Shown: in pieces, positions 33,060 to 39,613 of the stretch | How the letters are laid out: each line of letters starts with the position of its first letter | Numbering within the stretch: position 1 is the stretch's first letter | DNA from: an uncultured Acidimicrobiia bacterium | Lineage (GTDB): Bacteria; Acidobacteriota; Terriglobia; Versatilivoradales; Versatilivoraceae | Direction of reading: 5' to 3' | Length of the DNA: 64,000 bases | NCBI GenBank assembly: GCA_963786955.1 | Contig: CAWBAT010000008.1 | Span: 416,001 to 480,000, forward strand | The notes under the pieces: model-generated | Seen by the model: the letters and a program-made list of their open reading frames with translations, nothing else | Told to the model about the DNA's origin: nothing | Databases searched by the model: none | Made by a program: the position numbers and the translations under genes

Positions 33060-33887
33060 ATGAATGCCATTCAAGCCATTATCCTCGGCGCGGTGCAAGG
33101 GTTTACGGAATTTCTCCCTATTAGTAGTTCGGCTCATTTGATTTTGGTTCCCTGGATTATGGGTTGGGAGGACCAGGGCCTGACGTTTGATGTGGTTCTT
33201 CATGCCGGAACACTCCTGGCCATTCTTACCTACTTCTGGAAAGACTGGTACGGCATGCTTCGAGGGATTCTGAACTGGAAAAGCAATACCGAGGTTGAAG
33301 GAAACGCTGTTGAATCAAGACTTTTTTTATATGTGGTTTGTGCCACCATCCCGGCAGCCCTAGCGGGGTTCTTGGCCGAAAAGACAGTGGAGACAACCCT
33401 CAGGAGTCCCTTTGTCCTTTCCTTTACGATGATTGGAGTGGCGGTTCTTTTGTGGGTAGCTGAAAAGACTGCCAAACTCAAGAAAGGGCTTTCTGAACTG
33501 ACGCTGCCAGATGCACTCAGCATTGGTACGGCCCAGGCTCTTGCCCTGATCCCGGGAACATCCCGATCCGGAATCACGATTACCACCGGGCTTTTTCTCG
33601 GCTTCACCCGGGAAACAGCGGCCCGCTTTTCCTTTCTGTTATCCGCCCCAATCATCGCCGGAGCCGGCCTGAAGAAAGCGCTGGAACTCCGGCACGAAGG
33701 CATCCCCCACACGCATTTGTTCCCCATACTGCTGGGTTTTCTCTCCTCTCTGGTTGTGGGATACTTGACCATCCGGTTCCTGATGAGTTATCTTCAAAAA
33801 AATTCATTGTTCATCTTTATCTGCTACCGTATTCTGCTAGGGATGGTGATTTTGTTTTTGATCCATTTCGCAGGGTTCCGCCCATGA
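33060..33887 (+). CDS. uppP: Undecaprenyl-diphosphate phosphatase
   Basis: QGFTEFLPISSSAH and PGTSRSG motifs. Confidence 0.95.
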   Translation: MNAIQAIILGAVQGFTEFLPISSSAHLILVPWIMGWEDQGLTFDVVLHAGTLLAILTYFWKDWYGMLRGILNWKSNTEVEGNAVESRLFLYVVCATIPAALAGFLAEKTVETTLRSPFVLSFTMIGVAVLLWVAEKTAKLKKGLSELTLPDALSIGTAQALALIPGTSRSGITITTGLFLGFTRETAARFSFLLSAPIIAGAGLKKALELRHEGIPHTHLFPILLGFLSSLVVGYLTIRFLMSYLQKNSLFIFICYRILLGMVILFLIHFAGFRP

Positions 33888-36196
33888 GCCTTCTGGTGCC
33901 CTCAAAACATCCACGCATCAATGAAGCCGTCGGTATTGTGTTTTTCACGTTGACGTTTCTGATCTTTCTGAGCCTGATCTCCTATCACCCGTCTGACCCT
34001 TCGCTCAACAGTTCGCGAAACCTGTTAACCGATCATAATGTGGGGAATCTCATTGGACGGTTCGGTTCGACGCTCTCCGATTTGTTGCTCCAGTTGCTGG
34101 GTTACCCTTCTTTCCTGCTGCCGGTGATGTTTTCGATTCTCGGCTGGAGATGGCTGAAATCGCAGCCCATCGAAATCCCGTGGATCAAGGCCTTAGGCTT
34201 GGTCGGGCTGCTGGCTTCCACTTGTGCTCTGGCCGGACTTCTTTTCCCCAATTATCTCAGCATCGGCTGGTCTCTCAAGGCCGGAGGGCTATGGGGCGAC
34301 CTGCTCGGGGATTGGTTGAAGTCCCGGTTTAATTTGGCCGGTTCGTTGATTCTGACCGTGTCCGTCCTTCTGATTTCGCTCTTTGTTTCGACGCGATTCT
34401 CGTTCTCTGCCCTAGTTGCCTGGTTCAAGAATCATAGTGGATTTATCATGGAGTGGCGTGACCGTTGGGTTCTTAATCGTAAGGTCAGGGCCAAGGAAAA
34501 AGAACGAGTCCGGCTTGAAAAGGCAATGTTAGCGGAGGCGAAGGCCCGGGAAACTGCCAAGACAGTGATCAAACAATCCGTGACAGAGCTCAAAGAGCAG
34601 GGGGAAGCCTCCGCCAGGCGGATTCCCAAAGAGCCCTCTCCACGAAACATGGATTTTGCCGATGCCGAGCCGGTAATTCATTCGAAACGGGCTCCCATCG
34701 AGAAGGCCCATTTTATCCCGACCGGGACCAAGGATTTTGTTTTTCCCCGCATCACTTCGTTACATCCCTCGGAAGGTCAACAGATCGTCAATGAAAAAGA
34801 ACTGCGGCAGCGGGCGATCCAGTTGACGGAAAAATGCAAAGAGTTCGATGTCCACGGTCAGGTGATGCAGATTCACCCAGGCCCCGTCGTCACGACTTAT
34901 GAATTCAAGCCCGAGCCAGGCGTGAAATACAGCCGGATCACGAATTTGGTAGATGACCTTTGTCTCGCGTTGAAAGCCGAATCGGTTCGCATCGACCGGC
35001 TGCCCGGGAAATCTACGGTAGGCGTCGAAGTACCGAATTCTTTTCGCGAGACAATTTATCTTCGCGAGATCATCGAATCGGTCGAATTTCAGAACTCCCC
35101 ATCCAAGTTGACCATTGCCTTAGGGAAAGACATTGCAGGCAAAATCACGGTTGCCGACCTGACCAAGATGCCGCACTTGCTGATTGCAGGGCAAACTGGA
35201 TCCGGCAAGAGCGTTGCCGTCAATGCCATGATTCTTTCCATTCTGTATAAGGCAACACCGGACGAAGTAAAATTTATCCTGGTGGACCCGAAACGTCTCG
35301 AATTGGGCCTGTATGAAGACATTCCCCATTTGCTCACCCCGGTGGTCACGGAGCCCAAGCGCGCCTCGAACGCGCTGAAATGGGCAACCAATGAAATGGA
35401 GAATCGCTATAAGCTTCTAGCGACGGTGGGTGTCAGAAACATCGAACAATACAATGCACTGGTCAGTAAGCCCAAAACCCTGGAGCTCTTTCCGGTAGAG
35501 GAGATCGAAAGAAAGCCACTCCCGTTCATTGTCATTGTCATCGACGAATTGGCTGACCTGATGATGGTGGCCTCAAAAGACGTCGAAGACTCGGTGATGC
35601 GCTTGGCGCAGATGGCCAGGGCTGTGGGGATCCATTTGATTGTCGCGACTCAACGGCCTTCGGTGGATATCCTGACGGGTGTCATCAAGGCGAATTTTCC
35701 GTGCCGCATCTCGTTCCGTGTGGCCCAGAAGGTGGACTCTCGTACAATCTTGGATCAAATGGGGGCCCAGCAGTTATTGGGGAAAGGCGACATGCTTTTC
35801 ATTCCACCGGGTTCGTCCAAAATGGTGCGAGTGCATGCTCCCTTTGTGAGTGAAGATGAAACCAGCGAGATTGTGAAGCATCTTAAGGCTCAGTGCCAAC
35901 CCGTCTACAACCAGAAGGTGCTGGAAGACACCGGAGAGAAGGACAAGCAGCTCGCCGAGGTTGACGCTGAGGTGGACGAGATGTATGAAGAGGCCGTGCG
36001 TATTGTGGTCGAGATGGGGAAAGGCTCAACCTCCATCCTCCAGCGGCGGTTGCGACTCGGTTATGGTCGCGCTGCTCGCCTCATCGATATGATGGAACGC
36101 GACGGCATCGTCGGCCCCGCAGATGGCAGCAAACCGCGCGAAATTCTCAAACGGCGTGATTTCTTTAAGGAAATTGACGAAGAGCGGGGAGCGTAG
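33884..36196 (+). CDS. ftsK: DNA translocase FtsK
   Basis: N-terminal 4TM domain; HLLIAGQTGSGKS, IDELADLM and ATQRPS motifs; gamma domain LQRRLRLGYGRAARLID. Confidence 0.96.
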   Translation: MSLLVPSKHPRINEAVGIVFFTLTFLIFLSLISYHPSDPSLNSSRNLLTDHNVGNLIGRFGSTLSDLLLQLLGYPSFLLPVMFSILGWRWLKSQPIEIPWIKALGLVGLLASTCALAGLLFPNYLSIGWSLKAGGLWGDLLGDWLKSRFNLAGSLILTVSVLLISLFVSTRFSFSALVAWFKNHSGFIMEWRDRWVLNRKVRAKEKERVRLEKAMLAEAKARETAKTVIKQSVTELKEQGEASARRIPKEPSPRNMDFADAEPVIHSKRAPIEKAHFIPTGTKDFVFPRITSLHPSEGQQIVNEKELRQRAIQLTEKCKEFDVHGQVMQIHPGPVVTTYEFKPEPGVKYSRITNLVDDLCLALKAESVRIDRLPGKSTVGVEVPNSFRETIYLREIIESVEFQNSPSKLTIALGKDIAGKITVADLTKMPHLLIAGQTGSGKSVAVNAMILSILYKATPDEVKFILVDPKRLELGLYEDIPHLLTPVVTEPKRASNALKWATNEMENRYKLLATVGVRNIEQYNALVSKPKTLELFPVEEIERKPLPFIVIVIDELADLMMVASKDVEDSVMRLAQMARAVGIHLIVATQRPSVDILTGVIKANFPCRISFRVAQKVDSRTILDQMGAQQLLGKGDMLFIPPGSSKMVRVHAPFVSEDETSEIVKHLKAQCQPVYNQKVLEDTGEKDKQLAEVDAEVDEMYEEAVRIVVEMGKGSTSILQRRLRLGYGRAARLIDMMERDGIVGPADGSKPREILKRRDFFKEIDEERGA

Positions 36197-36205
36197 AAAA
36201 AATTG

Positions 36206-36383
36206 TCCACGGTCTAAGGTCAAAAGCAAATCTCTTATGTCCAAAGTCGAAGGTCTAGGGTCCAACGTCCAGGGTCGAATAAAAGGTCAAAAGTCGAAGG
36301 TCAGAATTAGAAGTCTAAGGTCTAAGGTCGAAGGTCGGAACTAAAAAATCCAAGGTCGAAGGTCGAGAGCCTAGAGTCCAGGA
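36206..36383 (+). repeat. About 20 degenerate 7-bp units (consensus TCNAAGG) upstream of the four-helix-bundle gene
   Basis: TCCACGG TCTAAGG TCAAAAG ... TCCAAAG TCGAAGG TCTAGGG TCCAACG TCCAGGG ... TCTAAGG TCTAAGG TCGAAGG TCGGAAC ... TCCAAGG TCGAAGG TCGAGAG. Confidence 0.88.
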
Positions 36384-36412
36384 AATAGAGGTTCCAGATT
36401 GAGGACTGAAGC

Positions 36413-36811
36413 ATGGCCGGGATTGAGAAATTTGAAGATATCGAGGCTTGGCAAGAGGCAAGAAACCTGACTCAAACGATTTACGCATTATCTTCAAATG
36501 GCAATTTCTCTAAAGATTTTGCGCTCAAGGATCAGGTCCGGAGAGCTGCAGTTTCCATCATGTCCAATATTGCTGAGGGATTTGAGCGAAGGGGAGACAG
36601 AGAGTTTCATCACTTCTTGTCCATAGCCAAGGCATCAAGCGGGGAATTACGCTCCCAACTTTATGTTGCCTTGGATCAACATTACATGGACCTGCAGCAG
36701 TTCACTACACTTTCAAACCAGGTAACTCACATTAGCTGCCTCATTGCAGGATTCATGAAGTACCTTGAACAATCAATCGAGAATAGGAACAAGAAGAGCC
36801 CTGGTCTATGA
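36413..36811 (+). CDS. Four helix bundle protein (23S rRNA IVS protein family, TIGR02436-like)
   Basis: FEDIEAWQ, DQVRRAAVSIMSNIAEGFER and FLSIAKASSGELRSQLY motifs. Confidence 0.92.
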   Translation: MAGIEKFEDIEAWQEARNLTQTIYALSSNGNFSKDFALKDQVRRAAVSIMSNIAEGFERRGDREFHHFLSIAKASSGELRSQLYVALDQHYMDLQQFTTLSNQVTHISCLIAGFMKYLEQSIENRNKKSPGL

Positions 36812-36823
36812 ATCTACATTGGG

Positions 36824-36872
36824 CTTTAGACCTTTGACGTTTGACCTTAGACTTTTGACCTTCGACCCGGGA
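36824..36872 (-). repeat. Seven 7-bp units, reverse complement of the upstream array
   Basis: CTTTAGA CCTTTGA CGTTTGA CCTTAGA CTTTTGA CCTTCGA CCCGGGA. Confidence 0.88.
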
Positions 36873-36874
36873 CC

Positions 36875-37204
36875 TTATTTGTCTTCAGTCTTGACGTTTT
36901 CCTCAATCCAATTCAAATAATTAGCAGAACCAGCGACGATCGGAAGCGCAATGATTTCCGGCACGGCATAAGAATGCAAGCGCTCCACCTCCTTCTGAAG
37001 TTCCGGGAACTTCTCGCGTGAAGTTTTCATGATAAGCAAGACTTCTTGATCTTCAGTCACTTTCCCTTCCCACCAATACCAGGAAGTAATGGAGGGTACA
37101 AGATTCACGCAAGCCGCAAATTTCTTCTCTACGAGGTCCTTGGCTAATTTTGCTGCCTCTGCGGAGTCCCCAACTGTCACCATCACGACGATCTTGTCAG
37201 TCAT
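36875..37204 (-). CDS. cutA: Divalent-cation tolerance protein CutA
   Basis: AACVN, SWYWWEGK and HSYAVPEII motifs. Confidence 0.92.
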   Translation of the reverse strand: MTDKIVVMVTVGDSAEAAKLAKDLVEKKFAACVNLVPSITSWYWWEGKVTEDQEVLLIMKTSREKFPELQKEVERLHSYAVPEIIALPIVAGSANYLNWIEENVKTEDK

Positions 37205-38112: not shown

Positions 38113-38230
38113 ATCTTGACTTCTAACCCTTGACTTTTTACCTTTGAACTTAGACCTCCAACATTCGGCCTTCGACTTTAGACTTTCGACCTCCGACTTT
38201 TGATTCCGACCTTCGACCTTAGACTTTTGA
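38113..38230 (-). repeat. About 17 heptamer units (CCTTNGA) directly upstream of the tRNA promoter
   Basis: CCCTTGA CTTTTTA CCTTTGA ACTTAGA ... CCTTCGA CTTTAGA CTTTCGA CCTCCGA CTTTTGA ... CCTTCGA CCTTAGA CTTTTGA. Confidence 0.88.
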
Positions 38231-38236
38231 ATTGCC

Positions 38237-38280: not shown

Positions 38281-38357
<77 letters not shown>

Positions 38358-38462
38358 AATTTCCTCAGCTCTTCAATCCTTCCAACCCTTTATTGCTCCG
38401 TACCTTATAGGCTAGTTCAGTCTTTCCGGCAAGTCCTCCTCTTGATCGTCATTTTCCTCATT

Positions 38463-38482
38463 TGCTAACAAACTGCTAACAA
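38463..38482. repeat. TGCTAACAA direct repeat with 11-bp period; candidate integrase arm-binding sites
   Basis: TGCTAACAA at 38463 and 38474, overlapping the integrase stop, about 105 bp from the tRNA 3' end. Confidence 0.5.
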
Positions 38483-39613
38483 TTGGTTTTTTCGCGGCCC
38501 TTTAACATCCGTTTTTCTAGCTTCGCGCAAGCTTCAGCTTTAGCCTGTGGGAATAAGTGTCCGTAAGTGTCGAATGTGATCTGAATGCTCGAATGTCCCA
38601 GTTGGTCAGAAACATATTTTGCACTTTCTCCCTGGGAAATCAACATCGATGCAAAGAAATGGCGGAGATCGTGGAATCGAGCAGTGCCCAATCCGGCGGC
38701 GCGCTTGATCGGCTTGAAAATGTGGTCGTCGAAGAAGTCTGGATCAATAAGATTTCCCTGACTACCACGGAAAATGAAACTGTCTGAGCTCTCCGCTGCC
38801 TGCTTCAACCGAGAGAGTAGCTGGATTACGTGATCGCTGAGCCCGACCCGTCGCGAAGATCTTTTTGATTTCGGAGGACCAATTTTCCAAAGCCATTTAT
38901 GAACCCCATCGGTCGCCGCGCACTTCGACAGCGCCTTATTGACGCGAAGCTCTTTTTGAAACCAGTCAATGTCCTCAAACCGTAAAGCCAGAATCTCCCC
39001 TCGACGCAGCCCAGTGAACGCATCCAGATAGATAATCCCATGGCCAATGTTCTTAAGCTCAGCGGCAGTGTCGATCAGTTTCCACACTTGGTCTACTGTG
39101 GGTGGAACAATTTGTTCATGGTTGATCAACGGAAGTTCTACACCCTCGACCGGATTGAAGTGAATGTAACCCTGTTTTCGCGCGCTGCTGCCTTTTGGGC
39201 TGAAACAGCATGACTCTCAGGAGGGTCACGGTATTTCGCAGCGTCTTGGTGGAAACATCCTTGGCGAGCTGAGCAACAAAACTTTGGACATTCTCCAGTC
39301 GAATTTGCTGCAACTTCATGGGACCAAAGAGTGGAATCAGATGCTTTCGAATAATCGACTCATAAGCCGATGAGGTCGAGCCACGGATGCTCAACCGGCT
39401 GGAGATGTAGCTCTCGGCAAACTCAGCAAATGTGACCGTCCTGGGCTCGACATAATCGCCCTTATTGATCTGAGTGAGTATCTCATTGAGCTGTGCGCGG
39501 GCGGATGCCTTGTTTGGAAAGCCCCCCAGCCACTTCTGCTTTCCCCCAGGAATTCGGTAGACAATGGTGTAAGAGCCACCTCGACAAATGATTGAACCAC
39601 TTTGCCTTCGCAT
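38476..39613 (-). CDS. Tyrosine recombinase/phage-type integrase, frameshift near 39200
   Basis: N-terminal arm and SAM-like region in 39116..39613; catalytic TGLRRGE, PKS, FHDLRH, LGHS and TYGH in 38476..39129. Confidence 0.88.

Follow-up and report, generated by a model that had tools for sequence, protein, structure and literature searches.

Tandem heptamer repeats have been known in bacterial intergenic DNA for decades without explanation, and proteins of the PF05635/TIGR02436 family, very widespread and encoded in many copies per genome in several phyla, have no known function. Both subjects meet in the DNA analyzed here, a window of 64,000 nucleotides (contig CAWBAT010000008.1 of assembly GCA_963786955.1) from an uncultured bacterium placed by GTDB in the Versatilivoraceae (Acidobacteriota). 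In this window, a PF05635 gene lies between two inverted arrays of 7-bp repeats, which we call arms, and gene and arms together form a cassette in the spacer between ftsK and cutA. We are confident that this locus belongs to a widespread class of stem-loop cassettes. The best explanation overall, to which we assign a probability of roughly 60%, is that the cassette is a transposase-free stem-loop element that is read as part of the host transcript and whose heptamers are recognized, most simply by its own protein.

Among known systems, the intervening sequence (IVS) of 23S rRNA that carries an open reading frame (ORF) comes closest. The IVS of Coxiella burnetii, located in helix 45, is a 428-nt selfish element with a 28-bp terminal stem, within which RNase III cuts (PMC4990558). 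The same account describes an S23p ORF preceded at its start codon by tandem GACAGAT heptamers, whose copy number varies between strains; it reports decay of this ORF and no expression in vivo, and it also lists ORF-bearing IVSs in Leptospira, Brucella, and Xanthomonas (PMC4990558). Like this element, our cassette has a stem of complementary termini whose loop holds an S23p/PF05635 ORF, lacks a transposase, and measures ~0.4–0.7 kb, and the Coxiella unit GACAGAT contains the GAT core that we describe below for one clade of the family (clade B). Unlike the 23S element, the cassette lies in an intergenic spacer between two protein-coding genes. Its arms are long degenerate arrays of ~20 and 7 units instead of a 28-bp near-perfect stem, and its gene is under purifying selection, whereas the Coxiella ORF is described as decayed. 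RNase III excision has been shown for the 23S IVS, whereas for the cassette it is a prediction. An IVS in the genome's own 23S rRNA was considered and rejected, because the single 23S gene (G000:C5:357151-360105, where G000 is this genome and C5 one of its contigs) matches the model end to end with no insert. The most fitting description of the cassette is that of an IVS-type element located outside rRNA.

Other described systems share parts of this design. The heptanucleotide short tandemly repeated repetitive (STRR) sequences, which are intergenic tandem 7-bp repeats of filamentous cyanobacteria with several unit types per genome, resemble the arms in being tandem 7-bp repeats in intergenic DNA, but the unit sequences here differ, and we do not claim membership. 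STRR sequences are not known to be defined by inverted pairs around a gene or to be linked to PF05635. The repetitive extragenic palindromic (REP) sequences, their hairpin-forming doublets (REPINs), and the REP-associated tyrosine transposases (RAYTs) are likewise dispersed intergenic hairpin repeats, in which the full form is a gene between inverted copies and many further copies are gene-less. There, however, the enclosed gene is a Y1 transposase, and here it is a four-helix bundle without a known catalytic motif. A link to RAYT and REP was rejected: 10 of the 21 Y1_Tnp (RAYT/IS200-like) matches in the genome (e.g. C2:96449-96790, C6:101177-101518, and C8:30963-31307) were examined, and the period-7 self-match of their flanks was at most 0.50 in all 10. 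Seven of these 10 genes are flanked by their own inverted REP-like palindromes, 65–105 nt long and differing between copies.

The protein also shares its four-helix-bundle fold with Avd (4DWL; 8UB7 for the ribonucleoprotein of a diversity-generating retroelement, DGR). Of all Pfam families, PF05635 occurs in DGR loci most often, and it is said to resemble Avd (PMC10053308). A DGR was rejected, as there is no adjacent reverse transcriptase and no template or variable repeat beside the gene; all four RVT_1 matches fall on contigs C5 and C4, outside the window and not beside any PF05635 gene, and the nearest is ~7 kb from C5:11892. An integron cassette, which is a promoter-less ORF with a single 3' attC in an array beside intI and attI, was rejected because the ORF here has an arm on either side and is not part of a cassette array; the tyrosine-recombinase ORFs in its vicinity (38476-39613) are split and adjoin a tRNA-Met gene. 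Another source places 18 genes of the PF05635 family in cas loci and reports no repeats (PMC3936711). In the full-text literature that we searched, which covers few subscription journals so that an older description is possible, we found no paper linking the PF05635 family to inverted heptamer arrays outside rRNA. An insertable hairpin cassette seems not to have been described in print as a class, in line with the initial annotation of this window, which knew of no mechanistic description.

The cassette and its neighbors are laid out as follows, in window coordinates:

33884-36196, + strand: ftsK, the upstream neighbor (ORF with Pfam FtsK_SpoIIIE, FtsK_4TM, FtsK_alpha, and FtsK_gamma)
36206-36381, + strand: upstream arm, ~20 degenerate heptamers of type RGTCNAR (AAGGTCN) in four phase blocks
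36382-36412, + strand: inner spacer, with a Shine-Dalgarno-like GAGGA at 36401-36405, 7 nt before the ATG
36413-36811, + strand: PF05635/TIGR02436 gene ("S23p", the 23S rRNA IVS protein family), 132 amino acids
36819-36874, − strand: downstream arm, 7 heptamers, reverse complement of the upstream unit (NGACYTT on the + strand)
36875-37204, − strand: cutA, the convergent downstream neighbor (ORF with Pfam CutA1, E 1.6e-39)

The arms fill the available space tightly. The ftsK stop codon lies ~10 nt 5' of the first heptamers, and the last unit of the downstream arm abuts the cutA stop codon exactly. Tandem Repeats Finder reported two period-7 arrays, one at 36246-36366 with 17.7 copies of the unit GTCGAAG (65% matches) and one at 36824-36867 with 6.1 copies of CTTTGAC, the reverse complement of the first unit. 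Sixteen units anchored on RGTC fall within 36211-36381; they form four phase blocks, so the upstream array has been interrupted by short insertions. Together with the period-7 array, these units make the count of about 20 degenerate heptamers in the initial annotation a fair one, and its seven reverse-complement heptamers between the gene's stop and that of cutA were confirmed by reading the sequence. A double-heptamer pattern, RGTCNARRGTCNAR, allowed at most one mismatch, had 35 matches in the window against 3.92 ± 1.85 in shuffled sequence, and none of 100 shuffles reached 35. Most of these matches fall in three places: 15 at 36211-36381 (+), seven at 36819-36874 (−), and nine at 38129-38232 (−), in an orphan array to which we return below.

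The initial annotation had also proposed that a transcript could fold into a stem with the ORF as its loop. The computed RNA fold of 36197-36880 agrees: the arms pair around the ORF, with 36206-36381 and 36819-36874 as partners in the minimum free energy structure (−216.2 kcal/mol, z −5.3, matched by none of 20 shuffles). The Shine-Dalgarno-like GAGGA sits in the loop, outside the stem. Scans for promoters (2 vs. 1.3 expected) and terminators (1 vs. 2.0 expected) were at chance.

The 132-residue product is a clear member of its family, with 117.7 bits against PF05635 (E 3.4e-34, curated cut-off 33.8) and 112.2 bits against TIGR02436 (E 1.3e-32, curated cut-off 24). Among Protein Data Bank (PDB) sequences it matches 2GSC (XCC0516, E 3.6e-14) and also BT_0352 (2RLD). 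Its predicted model (pLDDT 86.7) has four long helices at residues 8–27, 36–58, 62–88, and 94–128. Foldseek placed 2GSC first (TM-score to target 0.88, root-mean-square deviation 1.6 Å) together with 2RLD, followed by Avd in 4DWL and 8UB7 (TM-score to target 0.81–0.83, deviation 2.1–2.3 Å). Since identity to Avd is only 12%, the label "Avd-like" is valid at the level of the fold; the family and its structural relative had thus been named correctly from the sequence, with Avd as the more distant match. Against the ortholog in G002, a congener, dN/dS is 0.12, so the gene is kept by purifying selection. The PDB entries 2GSC and 2RLD each hold five chains. The array length has its mode at 4–5 units, but the detector is blind to arrays of fewer than four, so this is no evidence for a pentamer.

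The evidence that the cassette is a discrete unit comes from the same junction in related genomes. The ftsK-cassette-cutA stretch was searched in 30 relatives, and the junction was read in 12 genomes, including G000, which show the following states:

Bare spacer of 45–67 nt without heptamers: G014, G006, G007
Short gene-less hairpin, arms around ~60 nt: G011
Arms without a recognizable gene: G012
Arms with a decayed gene remnant: G016 (same sense) and G017 (flipped)
Intact gene, oriented as in G000: G000, G001, G008
Intact gene (87% amino acid identity) in flipped orientation, with the polarity of the arms retained: G002
Flipped gene with three stops in the first 25 codons: G010

The junction of G004 also looks bare, judging by coordinates only. 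This series shows that the unit can be inserted or deleted. The bare spacers provide the empty site that the initial annotation had envisaged, and they uphold its view that arms and gene form one transposase-free unit between housekeeping genes. In a tree of FtsK C-termini, flips occur in three genera and bare sites in two places; because the backbone is weak (support 71–85), one old insertion followed by losses is not separable from several insertions. The direction of decay is easier to read. The gene-less forms fall among gene-bearing ones on this tree, and two junctions retain gene remnants, so the hairpins at ftsK|cutA derive from cassettes and not the reverse. Repeated flips of the loop between unchanged arms show that the arms recombine as DNA, and in G002 the homologous inner spacer has flipped along with the gene. 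The two arms also evolve in concert at this orthologous site: across seven related genomes, arm similarity was higher within a genome than between genomes (cosine 0.58 vs. 0.47), and 14 of 2,000 permutations gave a value as high.

The design recurs throughout the genome. In the 5.65-Mb assembly (9 contigs, 93% complete), PF05635 had 10 matches at eight loci, two of them frameshifted, and all eight loci are flanked on both sides by inverted 7-bp arrays. The unit differs by locus and includes AAGGTCN, GAGTYCN, GATRCGR (in two paralogous copies), and AAGGTTY. With a single detector (35-nt window, at least 68% self-match), we counted 101 arrays at period 7, compared with 0, 7, 0, 4, and 0 at periods 5, 6, 8, 9, and 10. 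Fourteen of the 101 lie within 400 nt of the eight genes, a territory that makes up ~0.2% of the genome, and the other 87 lie further than 400 nt from any PF05635 gene. An inverted partner within 1.2 kb was found for 38 arrays. The gaps between partners are bimodal: most pairs around or next to a PF05635 gene have gaps of ~400–650 nt, and those of gene-less pairs are mostly 8–160 nt. This genome-wide class and the orphan array in the window were absent from the initial annotation.

Several array regions of the genome are of interest in their own right. Two paralogous copies of a cassette (G000:C5:10580-12460 and C4:381210-383020) lie in a duplicated gene context. In each copy, the gene stands between two complete GATRCGR/YCGYATC hairpins, and another hairpin lies ~1 kb upstream. 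At G000:C4:772300-774700, purine-rich non-coding stretches carry six copies of an identical 30-nt heptamer block, all in one polarity, in modules 118–192 nt apart, and they flank a pair of small minus-strand ORFs, one with a PIN-like N-terminus. A long minus-strand gene cluster at G000:C5:200000-256000 has heptamer arrays in many of its intergenic gaps; these are pyrimidine-rich on the + strand at 200–220 kb and purine-rich at 242–255 kb, and the polarity switches across a stretch of ~22 kb free of arrays. Arrays and hairpins of the units GCAGAAA and GCAGAAG are common and occur, for example, at C7:157173-157286, C6:833511-833682, C4:300843-301004, and C2:134276-134465.

Within the window itself, one such array stands alone:

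38113-38232, − strand: orphan heptamer array, between the stop of ftsB (DivIC) and tRNA-Met
38281-38357: tRNA-Met

It has ~17 heptamers of the type and polarity of the downstream arm, with no inverted partner arm found beside it, and G001 carries matching arrays at the corresponding place. It may be an orphaned arm whose cassette has been lost, or it may pair with the surplus units of the long upstream arm. Beyond the tRNA, two minus-strand ORFs (38476-39129 and 39116-39613) look like halves of a split tyrosine recombinase or integrase, and the region 38281-39613 is probably the edge of an integrated island.

To see how far the design extends, we collected loci from other organisms, among them Desulfacinum hydrothermale DSM 13146 (L053), Mariprofundus ferrooxydans PV-1 (L060), and Prosthecochloris vibrioformis DSM 260 (L062). 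For clade A, the relatives of the cassette protein, one genome per species was searched with a closer alignment, as an alignment of five paralogs was too diverse; this gave 80 loci with 52–64% protein identity from Planctomycetota, Acidobacteriota, Verrucomicrobiota, Desulfobacterota, Bacteroidota, Nitrospirota, and other phyla. In flanks of 250 nt at a self-match of at least 0.75, period 7 was present upstream at 33 of the 80 loci, downstream at 41, and on both sides at 22, and periods 5, 6, and 9 at none. Period 8 occurred four times upstream and once downstream, and a single locus has octamers on both sides. This is L029, from an Armatimonadota metagenome-assembled genome, with a period-8 self-match of 0.86 upstream and 0.82 downstream and the unit GGTTAGAA; further relatives with octamer arms are L090, L058, and L095. 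Local alignment of the two clade A flanks to each other gave a median score of 42 in inverted orientation, 20 in direct orientation, and 18.6 after shuffling, and scores of at least 40 were reached by 43 of 78 loci inverted and 4 of 78 direct. With all eight loci in the genome and most of the sampled relatives in other phyla showing such flanks, the association that the initial annotation had expected around other PF05635 genes is present.

Two further sets of loci follow the same pattern with other units. Clade B comprises 80 metagenome loci related to a second paralog (52–92% identity), where period-7 arrays were found upstream at 48 of 69 and downstream at 47 of 70, with units mostly GGATRCR and nothing at other periods in the flanks. 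Clade C comprises 30 loci, with period 7 at 0.75 or more upstream in 17 and downstream in 16 and with CATTKNT or other cores. One of its subclades, L184-L192, the closest to G000:C8:340605-340979, has a pyrimidine-rich upstream arm (TCATTKN), opposite in polarity to the purine-first arms (AATGCAA, GATGAAC, and similar) of distant clade C members; this may reflect either a flip of old date that has been stably inherited or a recognition core of another kind.

The arms have both a fixed polarity and a fixed core. In 106 of 108 arrays from 67 clade A loci, GT exceeds AC on the gene-sense strand. When one consensus unit per locus was taken and the 67 units were aligned circularly without a seed motif, the logo read D-R-G-T-Y-N-C, with G in 66 of 67 units and T and Y in all 67, while positions 1 and 6 varied freely; it contained 7.15 bits of information against 3.40 ± 0.16 for shuffled units. 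Because complementarity between the arms alone would not fix particular bases, this suggests that the core is selected for sequence reading. The cores differ between clades, with 66 GTY and one GAT in clade A against 59 GAT, eight GTY, and 13 neither in clade B. On a joint FastTree of 174 proteins, from which 16 with internal stops or short length were left out, unit class required 21 changes compared with a mean of 67.9 for shuffled labels. As kin share labels, this result by itself does not establish co-evolution. A single genome holds several cores, whereas one and the same core, joined to one protein clade, is found in many phyla. The core therefore follows the cassette and not the host.

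Based on these data, we propose the following course of events. In an ancestor within the bacterial family, a promoter-less PF05635 gene between inverted heptamer arrays would have been placed in the ftsK|cutA spacer, after which different lineages kept it, flipped it, broke it, or reduced it to a gene-less hairpin. The cassette would be transcribed by read-through within a host mRNA, and its arms would then pair into a long imperfect duplex, as in the ORF-bearing 23S IVS. RNase III could cut this duplex, in which case the insert would do little harm to its neighbors. The tandem heptamers would be read in a sequence- and strand-specific manner, most simply by the cassette's own homo-oligomeric protein, which is the only macromolecule that the cassette encodes. 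We do not hold the parts of this scheme with equal conviction. Recognition of the heptamers by the protein, an idea of the initial annotation, would fit the conserved, clade-specific core, and on this comparative evidence we regard it as close to an even bet. Processing of an RNA stem by RNase III is more tentative, and we lean somewhat against it.

The orientation of neighboring genes speaks for a role of the cassette at the level of the transcript. Called by a crude stop-to-stop ORF rule that left 16–24 ambiguous loci per tally, co-oriented and opposed neighbors numbered 50:5 upstream and 54:4 downstream in clade A and 26:8 and 29:7 in clade B. Arm polarity is linked to the direction of co-orientation, and the place of the Shine-Dalgarno-like motif in the loop and a gene for RNase III in the genome point the same way. 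Beyond the crudeness of the neighbor calls, a number of observations weigh against the explanation that we favor. The convergent downstream neighbor at ftsK|cutA is a minority layout, seen in 4 of 58 clear clade A calls. A wobble test at 61 of 78 loci found no excess of G.U over A.C mismatches on the sense strand (85 vs. 80, p 0.76), so RNA-level selection on arm pairing is not demonstrated. Among public runs, this DNA occurs only in low-depth contigs from sediment metagenomes and in a single metatranscriptome, and none of these contigs bridges the cassette; the 20 public holders each contain at most 0.47 of the sampled words, and the two contig joints listed, either short-sided (27 nt) or with extra letters, probably come from repeats or other organisms. 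In this genome, 63 of the 101 arrays have no inverted partner at the detector threshold, and the abundant unit GCAGAAA has no PF05635 gene in the 93%-complete assembly, indicating that arrays can exist without a protein gene nearby. Of the seven copies at ftsK|cutA that carry a gene or its remnant, three are flipped relative to their arms, one of these being intact, so polarity is not absolute. Finally, unit class and protein clade could co-occur by common descent, and the sample holds only 4–6 independent contrasts; this left a test of covariation between protein residues and heptamer core without power.

The alternative that survives best, which we nevertheless consider unlikely, is a DNA-level hairpin element, whose arms would act as single-stranded DNA hairpins or cruciforms used by a host or trans-acting enzyme (compare REP/RAYT, IS200/IS605, and attC), with the protein as an accessory or passenger. 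The strand symmetry of the wobble test is what would be expected if pairing matters in DNA or on both strands. The gain and loss polymorphism at the junction, gene-less hairpins that resemble internally deleted derivatives, the DNA recombination evident from repeated loop flips, and the many Y1 transposase genes of the genome (21 matches) also point this way. However, the 10 Y1 genes examined lack a period-7 signal in their flanks (maximum 0.50), seven have REP-type palindromes of their own, and there is no recombinase inside the cassette. Moreover, polarity is tied to the direction of the gene and its neighbors at ~90% or more, which is probably stronger than replication-strand bias alone would give.

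A second alternative gives the primary role to the arrays. They may be intergenic RNA elements that serve the host as terminators, mRNA stabilizers, or operon punctuation, like REP or bacterial interspersed mosaic elements, with the PF05635 gene tending to lodge in their loops. Such a role would suit the 87 arrays far from any PF05635 gene, the arrays between the genes of the long C5 cluster, and a cassette that replaces a short spacer between genes that are convergent in relatives. Against it, the hairpins at ftsK|cutA derive from cassettes, as the FtsK tree and the two remnants indicate; the heptamer core follows the protein clade and not the host, with GTY, GAT, and other cores in one genome; and a simple terminator scan found nothing at the arms. 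We regard this alternative as distinctly improbable.

The flips invite a third alternative, an invertible DNA switch in which recombination between the arms turns the gene around to be read from either the ftsK or the cutA side, for on/off or alternative expression. The loop is flipped, with arm polarity kept, in three genera: in G002, where the gene is intact, in G010, and in the remnant of G017. The canonical polarity of 106 of 108 arrays at 67 loci in many phyla, however, implies that flipped states are rare or short-lived. In addition, two of the three flipped copies are broken, no invertase gene lies in or beside the cassette, and the metagenome contigs, none of which spans the cassette, contain no reliable strand-switch joint. 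Both orientations were seen between species, and the probability of a switch appears very small. Chance association, in which generic STRR-like repeats happen to flank the gene, is negligible: period-7 arrays are common in this genome (101), but all eight PF05635 loci have inverted arms on both sides, 14 arrays crowd into ~0.2% of the genome within 400 nt of these genes, and the same design recurs in 80 + 80 + 30 loci of other organisms, where periods 5, 6, and 9 gave nothing.

Returning to the host-read, transposase-free cassette, a broader form of this explanation can be imagined, although we would not expect it to hold in full. PF05635 proteins may be sequence-specific readers of tandem heptamers, possibly with one heptamer per subunit of a ring and with the clade cores R-G-T-Y-N-C, G-A-T-R-C, and others. 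Together with the arms, such a protein would make up a self-contained, transposase-free mobile unit that moves through an RNA or single-stranded DNA hairpin intermediate, and the rRNA IVS, the dispersed heptamer repeats of bacteria, STRR-like arrays among them, and the Avd of retroelements would be offshoots of a single system.

This locus and its relatives join three subjects: the PF05635 family, intergenic heptamer repeats, and the nature and origin of rRNA intervening sequences. The 23S IVS appears to represent one particular landing site among those of a general hairpin cassette, and the gene-less heptamer hairpins look like decayed remains of such cassettes. The conserved core specific to each clade yields a concrete hypothesis, namely that the protein reads its own repeats. 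If this is true, the cassette would represent small selfish elements of a new kind, independent of any transposase, and its proteins may form a new family of Avd-related nucleic-acid binders that read repeats.

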